Made by a program: the position numbers and the translations under genes. The notes below the pieces were generated by a model, which worked only from the letters and a program-made list of their open reading frames with translations, was not told where the DNA came from and made no database searches. A stretch of 64,000 nucleotides of DNA, taken from NCBI GenBank assembly GCA_964384555.1, contig CAYLLA010000002.1, positions 1,659 to 65,658 on the forward strand. The letters run 5' to 3'. This document shows, one piece after another, positions 45,324 through 46,447 of the stretch. How positions within the stretch are numbered: position 1 is the first letter of the stretch; the number at the start of each line of letters is the position of its first letter. The DNA comes from an uncultured Ruminococcus sp. (GTDB taxonomy: Bacteria > Bacillota > Clostridia > Oscillospirales > CAG-272).

Positions 45324-46447
45324 CTATTCCAGGTTGATTATTTCTCGATTTGCTGGCATTTTGTTCTTGTATCTATAAGTGTCATATAACCACAAAAAAG
45401 GCTGTACGTGTATGAGAGTTCTTGCAAGGTTGAAAACAAACCCATTTATGCGGCACTTGCCTGCATAGAGATATGGATGCTTCTCCAAGGCCGATAGCAC
45501 TTCTTTTGCTCGATTACCGCCATGCTCTTTTGCGATGTTGACATACTCGTGATGTTTAGACATCCAGCATTTCGCCTCCCGGACAGTTCCGCCATTCTTG
45601 AAATGATCTTCTATTGCATCAACAAAATACCATGAAACGAATCCTACACCGTTGAAATCGTGAGCTAAATAAGCCTGAAACATTGGGTCAAAATAAGCAA
45701 ATCCGGTTAATGTGCTTGTGTGAACGCACGATGCTGGATTGTTCCGGTACAAGTAGAAAATGCGATTGTAAAAGGCAATTGAAGCTGCACGATATGCGCA
45801 TTTTCGAAGAAATAATACATCCTCAGAGTGTTTTAATCCTACTATAAAGCGAATTTGGTGGTTGTTAAAAAGAGTGGTTGAATATAGAGCTGCTCCAAAT
45901 TGCGAAGTCAGGCATGTGCTCACGGAGGAATCTCCGCCCTCAAAAGTTCCCTCTTTAACATTAACAGCAGCTGTATATCTGCTTACAGTATAGTTACAGT
46001 TTGCAGATTTAAAGCGAATCATTGTGGCATTGGACAATGCAGAAACGCTCTCATTGGTGAAAAAATTGCTCGTCCACAAATCGTCTGCATCAAGGAATGC
46101 AATGTAATGATTTCTATCATCATAATCGGAGGATCCTAAAACGAATTCAATTCCAGTATTTCTAGCAGCTGAAACGCCAGCATTTTTCTGATGAAGTGCC
46201 GTAATACGATTACTCGCGGCAGCAAATTCATCACACAGCTGACCGGAACCATCTGTGGAACCATCGTCAACAAGTACGATAGATATGTTTTGGTACGGCT
46301 GATTCAAAACCGAGGCCACTGCATTTGTCAGAAGTTTTTGGCAATTATAGACCGGTATAATTACGGTTATCGCTGTCTGTCTGTCTGTCTGTCTGTCTGT
46401 CTGTCTGTCTGTCTGTCTGCTCTCGGAATCGGCTCAACTGTCAGCAT
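45324..46447 (-). CDS. GT2 glycosyltransferase with a 5' (ACAG)11 tract, currently out of frame (phase OFF)
   Basis: The GT2 core (ITVIIPVYNCQKLLTNAVASVLNQPYQNISIVLVDDGSTD) is open from just 3' of the repeat. The only ATG with an operon context (46447) is in the frame that stops at TAA 46369-46367. Confidence 0.8.
46373..46416. repeat. (CTGT)11 = (ACAG)11 tetranucleotide repeat
   Basis: 44 perfect nt plus one imperfect unit (ctgc, 46417-46420). Confidence 0.97.

Follow-up and report, generated by a model that had tools for sequence, protein, structure and literature searches.

Repeat-tract contingency loci are textbook features of mucosal pathogens with small genomes, among them Haemophilus, Neisseria, Campylobacter and Helicobacter. 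In H. influenzae, the gene lgtC (HI_0258) carries between 8 and 38 copies of 5'-GACA across 16 genomes (PMC2651432), and its ON or OFF state is set by the number of repeat units modulo 3 (PMC6479036). Here we describe a related arrangement in a 64,000-nucleotide stretch of DNA (hereafter the window) from an uncultured Ruminococcus sp. (contig CAYLLA010000002.1, positions 1,659 to 65,658), where the tetranucleotide ACAG is repeated at the 5' end of a gene for a family 2 glycosyltransferase (GT2) within a polysaccharide locus. A preliminary description of the window had read this tract as a slipped-strand phase switch of the Haemophilus type, currently OFF and little documented in gut Clostridia. 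We consider it likely (probability about 0.75) that the tract is a simple-sequence contingency switch, acting by slipped-strand mispairing on translation of the GT2. The mechanism is known; the taxon and the setting are new.

GACA is ACAG in another register, and both repeats encode the same hydrophilic DRQT peptide. As in lgtC, the tract lies inside the open reading frame (ORF) of a surface-glycan glycosyltransferase, after the start codon and ahead of the catalytic domain, and its length varies from strain to strain. LgtC, however, belongs to family GT8, whereas the enzyme here is a GT2 (PF00535): a Pfam scan of the tract-bearing protein (E ≤ 0.001) returned the GT2-type families PF00535, PF13641 and PF10111 alone, with no GT8 match. 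The two genes are thus analogues in repeat and architecture, not homologues. They also differ in host (a Gram-positive-type gut anaerobe of the Oscillospiraceae versus a Pasteurellaceae pathogen) and in product (a Wzy-type polysaccharide versus lipooligosaccharide), and the tracts seen here are shorter (8–11 units), none of them ON.

A second tract, (AT)17, splits an O-acyltransferase gene (Acyl_transf_3) two genes downstream. Its closest described counterparts are H. influenzae oafA, with a mid-gene GCAA tract (PMC2651432, PMC6479036), and Staphylococcus aureus icaC, with a TTTA tract, which places the mechanism in the Bacillota (PMC4117637). All three are membrane enzymes for O-acyl modification of surface polysaccharide that carry the tract in the middle of the gene and are truncated when it is out of frame. 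Here, in contrast, the repeat is the dinucleotide AT (8–17 units), encoding (YI)n in a membrane domain, and the host is a commensal anaerobe.

Phase variation of gut commensals, in the literature searched, means almost exclusively invertons (PMC11868660, PMC8489884, PMC10028968); described cases include the capsule loci of Bacteroides and cwpV, the flagella and cmrRST of Clostridioides difficile (PMC11868660, PMC8489884). Invertons resemble the arrangement proposed here in giving stochastic, heritable ON/OFF heterogeneity of gut-bacterial surface structures. However, they employ a site-specific recombinase and inverted repeats and control transcription of a whole locus, whereas slippage would frameshift the translation of single tailoring enzymes within one locus. 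Pfam scans of the locus genes found no recombinase; no dedicated inverted-repeat search was made. In agreement with the preliminary description, the full-text literature yielded no contingency loci of the repeat-tract type among the polysaccharide genes of gut Clostridia, which is no proof, as subscription journals lie largely outside its coverage. A 2025 review asks whether multi-locus phase variation is truly restricted to pathogens or whether this impression reflects database bias (PMC11868660).

Start codon and reading frame of the tract-bearing GT2

The repeat is perfect (Tandem Repeats Finder: period 4, 11.8 copies, 100% matches, score 94). Three consecutive units (ACAGACAGACAG) have no other copy in the 64-kb window and occur in 0 of 100 dinucleotide-preserving shuffles. 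The gene starts at ATG 46447 (all positions are in Table 1), so close to the stop of the upstream GT2 gene that the short gap would permit translational coupling. A leader of ten codons leads into the tract, the last of them (A) being finished by bases inside the repeat; in relatives this leader reads MLTVEPIPRA or MLTAEPTPRA. The tract itself reads (DRQT)n in each of the three frames. At 11 units the frame of ATG 46447 runs from MLTVEPIPRA through the tract, reading MLTVEPIPRADRQTDRQTDRQTDRQR*, and terminates at a TAA.

The frame that carries the GT2, whose domain begins directly 3' of the tract, reads ...SRQTDRQTDRQTDRQTAITVIIPVYNCQKLL... / ...RQTDRQTAITVIIPVYNCQKLL..., and from its upstream stop to GTG 46319 this frame contains no ATG, GTG or TTG. 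ATG 46447 is joined to it at 12 or 9 units. A TTG at 46437, in the second frame, is joined to it at 10 or 13 units, and at 8 or 11 units neither codon is. The preliminary description had given the same ATG, 2 nucleotides after the upstream stop, the same leader, gcag(acag)11 and the stop at 46369-46367, and had placed the GT2 core directly 3' of the repeat in the frame reached at 12 or 9 units; both the sequence and the frame arithmetic confirm these points.

Where does the protein really begin? ORF finders and annotation choose GTG 46319 or TTG 46307. The public product P0001 (100% identical) is a 327 amino acid protein (MNQPYQ...) that starts at TTG 46307, 22 residues inside the fold. We searched for homologues with the reconstructed 12-unit protein and found that 17/17 examined (42–79% identity) start upstream of the (I/V)xV(I/V)IPV(Y/F)N strand (ITVIIPVYN in the window), the point on which the preliminary description had staked its choice of start. 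Their leaders are 5–25 residues long, and many open with MLT(E/S/V). In a DNA alignment of four lineages, an AAGG/AAAGG element and the ATG are both conserved.

The domain evidence agrees. PF00535 matches the GT2 body with E = 9.9e-28 (profile positions 1–96 on residues 3–105), and the first profile position falls on the third residue beyond the tract. In an alignment of 18 sequences, VDDGSTD and FLDADD (D62, D63, D121, D123, D124) are invariant. Ten further invariant columns (I28, V30, P33, V34, N36, L41, V45, S47, V48, L49) lie upstream of GTG 46319, so the earlier statement that a start there would delete the first beta-strand holds. Because not one of the 17 homologues begins inside or after the ITVIIPVYN strand, and many open with MLT, we take ATG 46447 to be the real start and GTG 46319 and TTG 46307 to be artefacts of ORF calling. 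On these grounds the 11-unit gene, as sequenced, is predicted to be OFF and incapable of making the enzyme.

Tract length in relatives

For comparison we used related contigs from public assemblies that encode the neighbouring proteins. Logan contigs (k = 31) always end inside the ACAG tract and are therefore silent on its length, while they resolve the shorter AT tract. MEGAHIT contigs of one study resolve the ACAG tract in four samples of a sister strain: ERZ27271039 (L001) has gcgg(ACAG)8, and ERZ27271038, ERZ27271043 and ERZ27271066 (L106/L085-87) have gcgg(ACAG)10. The 8-unit and 10-unit contigs show 0 substitutions in 2,480 shared flanking nucleotides. The ACAG tract is thus hypermutable between isogenic contigs and mutates far faster than its flanks.

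In sample ERZ27271053, other MEGAHIT k141 contigs break off inside a 40-nucleotide tract from either side, and in ERZ27271044 from one side (contigs L088, L097/L107, L100). A tract as short as this should not break an assembly at k = 141, and breakage is expected if lengths are mixed within a sample; these contig ends hint at such mixtures. One of the contigs (L097) begins with an odd AGGCAG ahead of 8 units.

Further away, the tract becomes shorter. In L105, a closer-to-ancestral relative, the tract is gcag(ACAG)3 and keeps the frame of the ATG (protein P0121, MLTAEPTPRADRQTEISVIIPVYN). A lineage with 56% identity carries (GACA)6 at the corresponding codon, again in frame (..ISGQTDRQTDITV..); in sister alleles the repeat has three in-frame units, (GACA)3 (..ISGQTDITV..), or is missing (..ISEQTNITV..). 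Other homologues have ..RQTA.. there, i.e., one unit. Comparison of repeat number among relatives had been set beforehand as a test of the phase-switch proposal, and the number proved variable (3, 6, 8, 10 and 11 units). Because the same codon position holds 1, 3, 6 or 8–11 units in different lineages, we conclude that a QT/DRQT-coding proto-repeat gave rise to the tract, and did so in two lineages or more.

The 6-unit allele is found in human gut metagenome contigs (L122-L131), where a 297 amino acid GT2 is followed by the (GACA)6 GT2 in another polysaccharide locus. That locus also has LicD, a BCCT transporter and an NTP_transferase, family names which suggest a choline-decorated glycan. The 6-unit in-frame allele is present throughout this set, which is a biased sample because exact protein matching was used to collect it.

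An exact-pattern scan of metagenome contigs with the upstream flank plus tract gave no match. Ten hypothetical proteins of the ON or TTG form had no exact match, and a positive control, the 369 amino acid form of L085-87, was equally absent, so that this negative carries no weight. A search of genome contigs with generic GT2 motifs drawn from the full GT2 alignment gave distant GT2s only (≤35% identity) among the matches listed.

The second tract supplies what is so far the better documented case. The N-terminal part of the O-acyltransferase has a PF01757 match over residues 10–252, and the C-terminal part, in another frame, is hydrophobic, with GEHSTNIWLTH and transmembrane-like segments. At 17 units the two are out of frame, and 15 or 18 units would restore the frame; an orthologue (L095) is full-length, with 344 amino acids. 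In the sister strain, 16 samples gave tracts of 8, 9, 10, 11, 12 or 15 units. With 9, 12 or 15 units the protein is full length (ON; 342, 344 and 346 amino acids), with 8 or 11 it is truncated (OFF; 276 and 278 amino acids), and with 10 it is split (OFF; 240 + 100 amino acids). Eight samples are ON and eight are OFF. The contigs are 0–4 substitutions apart over 5.7–11.8 kb, and four with 0 substitutions have 15, 12, 11 and 11 units. This is direct population evidence of repeat-driven ON/OFF variation in the O-acyltransferase, better documented than the GT2 switch, and it greatly strengthens the case for reading the ACAG tract likewise.

Proposed slippage switching and its alternatives

How would the GT2 switch operate? 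We propose that the GT2 is translated from ATG 46447 with the help of the AAGGCGG ribosome-binding element, and that slipped-strand mispairing at replication adds or removes 4-nucleotide units. With n = 0 mod 3 (9 or 12 units here, 3 in a relative) the full enzyme would be made with a harmless (DRQT)n extension at its N-terminus; the extension should be tolerated because leader length varies naturally among homologues. With n = 2 mod 3 no enzyme would be made, and the products would be peptides of 26 residues (11 units, the window) or 22 residues (8 units, L001). With n = 1 mod 3 (10 or 13 units) only the TTG, which has no Shine-Dalgarno (SD) sequence, would be in frame, and expression would be weak or nil. 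The GT2 is one of nine glycosyltransferases in a Wzy/EpsG-type locus, and switching it would decide whether the repeat unit carries one of its sugars. The (AT)n tract would independently determine the presence or absence of O-acyl groups, and with both switches a single genotype could display at least four glycan variants. The approximately 1 kb left untranslated in the OFF state might also lower the expression of downstream genes by polarity; a promoter/terminator scan of 42.8–47.6 kb gave counts no higher than in shuffles, with no terminator enrichment and no sign of internal signals. We infer that switching is reversible within a clone and has a phenotype, and, by analogy, phage, immunoglobulin A (IgA) or competition may be the selective agent.

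This proposal draws support from the anatomy of the gene and its conserved start, from the 8- and 10-unit alleles with identical flanks, from the variable AT tract, from the growth of the repeat in relatives, from the clustering of microsatellites in the locus, from the precedents in H. influenzae and S. aureus and from the selection on the gene discussed below. Several observations weigh against it. None of the three independent long-tract alleles (8, 10 and 11 units) shares the frame of the ATG, and the in-frame alleles have only 3 or 6 units, tracts that may be stable. The comparison also rests on assemblies, not reads, and consensus assemblies can bias tract lengths. However, by chance alone the probability of finding no in-frame allele among three long-tract alleles is about 0.3, which makes the missing ON allele weak counter-evidence. 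In nontypeable H. influenzae, lic2A is OFF in 59 of 70 invasive and 16 of 17 carriage isolates (PMC6479036), and a predominance of OFF alleles is accordingly no strong argument against phase variation.

A refinement of the proposal, which we think unlikely, is a three-level volume control in which n = 0 mod 3 gives full, 1 mod 3 low (from TTG 46437) and 2 mod 3 no expression. Ten units is the consensus in three of the four resolved sister-strain samples, and in these contigs (L085-L087) the ORF runs uninterrupted for 369 amino acids from the position of TTG 46437, where gene callers start it. Since the leader varies in sequence and length among homologues, the MSRFRE... leader of this form should be tolerated. 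Judging by the title of a 2007 report by Dixon, cited in PMC6479036, lic2A is said to be a possible precedent for control at three levels. Against this, the TTG is about 20 nucleotides from the sole SD-like element and lacks a purine-rich stretch that could serve it, no homologue begins with a comparable leader, and the three 10-unit samples may be one clone and hence not independent.

It is less probable still that the repeat has expanded neutrally and unchecked, as a microsatellite in a disused gene that is effectively a pseudogene, with no adaptive switching. Such decay would fit the out-of-frame long-tract alleles and the public annotation, which calls only the truncated 327 amino acid product. 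However, the 349-codon ORF (1,050 nucleotides) is free of stops and indels in all three lineages compared (window, sister lineage, L105), including the two long-tract lineages, which are 0.31 synonymous substitutions per site (dS) apart. Measured against two lineages (dS 0.31–0.42), its ratio of nonsynonymous to synonymous substitution rates (dN/dS) is 0.15–0.19, with 0.19 between the two long-tract lineages, and is similar to the 0.075–0.17 of neighbouring glycosyltransferases. Nor does a tract that is 100% pure, or an adjacent acyltransferase tract with as many ON as OFF alleles, look like decay. The GT2 gene is under purifying selection and is not decaying. Intermittent expression would leave just such a pattern, purifying selection on a gene that is out of frame in consensus assemblies. 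Between the window and the sister lineage (L095), the tract-bearing GT2 is 88% identical in amino acids (dS 0.31) and its immediate neighbours are 95–99% identical (dS 0.08–0.15), with 98.7% for the upstream GT2; the stronger divergence of the tract-bearing gene suggests a mosaic or recombined history.

Could the 11 units be an assembly or sequencing artefact, the genome truly having 12 or 9 units and the gene being ON? Repeat tracts are error-prone in assemblies, as the k = 31 Logan contigs that break inside this one illustrate. Yet the tract is found in independent assemblies from at least 12 samples and three pipelines, its 44 nucleotides are well within read length, the (AT)17 of the same assembly is likewise out of frame, and an assembly consensus most likely represents the majority allele. 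We regard an artefact as very improbable.

Hardly credible at all is an enzyme made independently of the tract, either from GTG 46319 or TTG 46307, the starts that ORF finders and public annotation choose, or by ribosomal frameshifting on the repeat: the downstream starts lose PF00535 positions 1 to about 20 (the nucleotide-binding beta-1/alpha-1 region, with invariant I28, V30, P33, V34 and N36), no homologue starts at either position, and programmed frameshifting uses an X XXY YYZ slippery heptamer, of which the sequence has none.

The polysaccharide locus and its wider meaning

Both tracts lie in one tightly packed Wzy-type locus. In order, its genes encode, according to Pfam scans, a DegT aminotransferase, a Bac_transf priming transferase, a PglD-like acetyltransferase, a GT4, an EpsG polymerase, a GT4, the upstream GT2, the tract-bearing GT2, a GT4, the tract-bearing Acyl_transf_3 protein, a DXD glycosyltransferase, a pyruvyl transferase, a GT4, a Wzx-like protein of 512 amino acids and an NTP_transf_5. 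The GC content of the locus is 0.45–0.49, compared with 0.53–0.56 in its flanks. Two more stretches of low GC (0.42) lie at 16–20 kb and 60–64 kb; the latter carries DUF4417 and an IrrE-like peptidase, perhaps the remains of a mobile element. The host is a relative of Anaerotruncus sp. CAG:390 (Clostridia, Oscillospiraceae), whose tyrosyl-tRNA synthetase shares 91% identity with that of the window, and the related contigs include samples labelled as human gut metagenomes.

Table 1. Positions of the two tracts, their genes and other repeats in the window
Feature	Position	Strand	Remarks
Upstream GT2	46450-47343	minus	297 amino acids; TAA stop 46452-46450, 2 nucleotides before ATG 46447
Shine-Dalgarno-like AAGGCGG	46458-46464	minus	10 nucleotides 5' of ATG 46447
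ATG start of tract-bearing GT2	46445-46447	minus	homologues begin MLT...; invariant in DNA alignment
TTG in second frame	46435-46437	minus	possible weak alternative start; no SD at usable spacing
Leader codons 2-9 (LTVEPIPR) and first base of codon 10 (A)	46420-46444	minus	
Perfect tract gcag(ACAG)11 = (ACAG)11.8	46373-46419	minus	between ATG 46447 and GT2 domain
TAA ending the ATG frame at 11 units	46367-46369	minus	26-residue peptide
Downstream starts GTG 46319 and TTG 46307	46305-46319	minus	chosen by ORF finders and annotation; strand beta-1 and helix alpha-1 would be lost with either
GT2 (GT-A fold) coding body	45324-46373	minus	349 codons + stop; intact ORF, no in-frame start at 11 units
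O-acyltransferase gene split by (AT)17	43080-44124	minus	N-terminal part 44124-43276; C-terminal part 43406-43080, other frame
(AT)17	43406-43439	minus	mid-gene in Acyl_transf_3 O-acyltransferase
Wzy-type polysaccharide locus	37329-53011	minus	tightly packed
(AT)9	39485-39502	minus	in Wzx-like ORF 38560-40098
8-nucleotide A/T homopolymers in locus genes	41730-41737, 48191-48198, 50629-50636		
ORF of 950 amino acids	53464-56316	minus	18-nucleotide repeat at 55780-56097
Secreted-type ribonuclease ORF (PF00545)	33807-34493	minus	18-nucleotide repeat at 34153-34270

The window contains only three non-homopolymer microsatellites, ACAG, (AT)17 and (AT)9, and all of them lie within 7 kb. The (AT)9 encodes an in-frame YIYIYI in the Wzx-like protein, which has no Pfam match. 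We rejected it as a switch: relatives carry an interrupted (TA)7 and the product always has 512 amino acids, so that it looks like a stable proto-repeat. A hexapeptide acetyltransferase of 137 or 183 amino acids in L122-L127 was likewise rejected as a third switch, the DNA being identical and only the choice of start codon differing. Three of the four 8-nucleotide A/T homopolymers of the window lie inside polysaccharide genes; with product lengths constant in relatives and the locus richer in AT, this placement is probably due to chance.

Longer repeats occur outside the locus. A 950 amino acid ORF without Pfam match contains 17.7 copies of an 18-nucleotide repeat encoding (PETTKA)n in frame; its orthologue in L106 is called at 938 amino acids, consistent with two fewer units. 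The ORF of a secreted-type ribonuclease contains 6.4 copies of an 18-nucleotide repeat with a similar consensus. Three ENA contigs differ by 9 nucleotides somewhere upstream of the polysaccharide genes.

What do the two tracts mean when taken together? It is tempting to hypothesize that a commensal gut member of the Oscillospiraceae has a multi-gene phasome within one capsule or exopolysaccharide locus, in which two independent slippage switches would give at least four glycan variants. The GT2 switch would have arisen more than once, in separate lineages, from a ...RQT... proto-repeat at one and the same codon, as under selection for mutability, and would perhaps have three levels through its ATG and TTG. 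No contingency system of the repeat-tract type would have been described before from the polysaccharide loci of gut Clostridia, and multi-locus phase variation would not be confined to pathogens. We give this combined picture about even odds.

The locus also has practical lessons. Gene callers mis-annotate such genes as truncated, as the public protein that starts inside the fold shows, and k-mer assemblers break contigs at such tracts. Contigs with 0 substitutions that differ in tract length offer a simple way to mine metagenomes for switches. Heterogeneity of glycans at the strain level, with its bearing on phage, IgA and colonisation, would escape tools that look only for invertons. For the Oscillospiraceae, the locus provides a concrete example from a commensal, with evidence from natural populations in public metagenome assemblies, and it bears on the question whether multi-locus phase variation is confined to pathogens.

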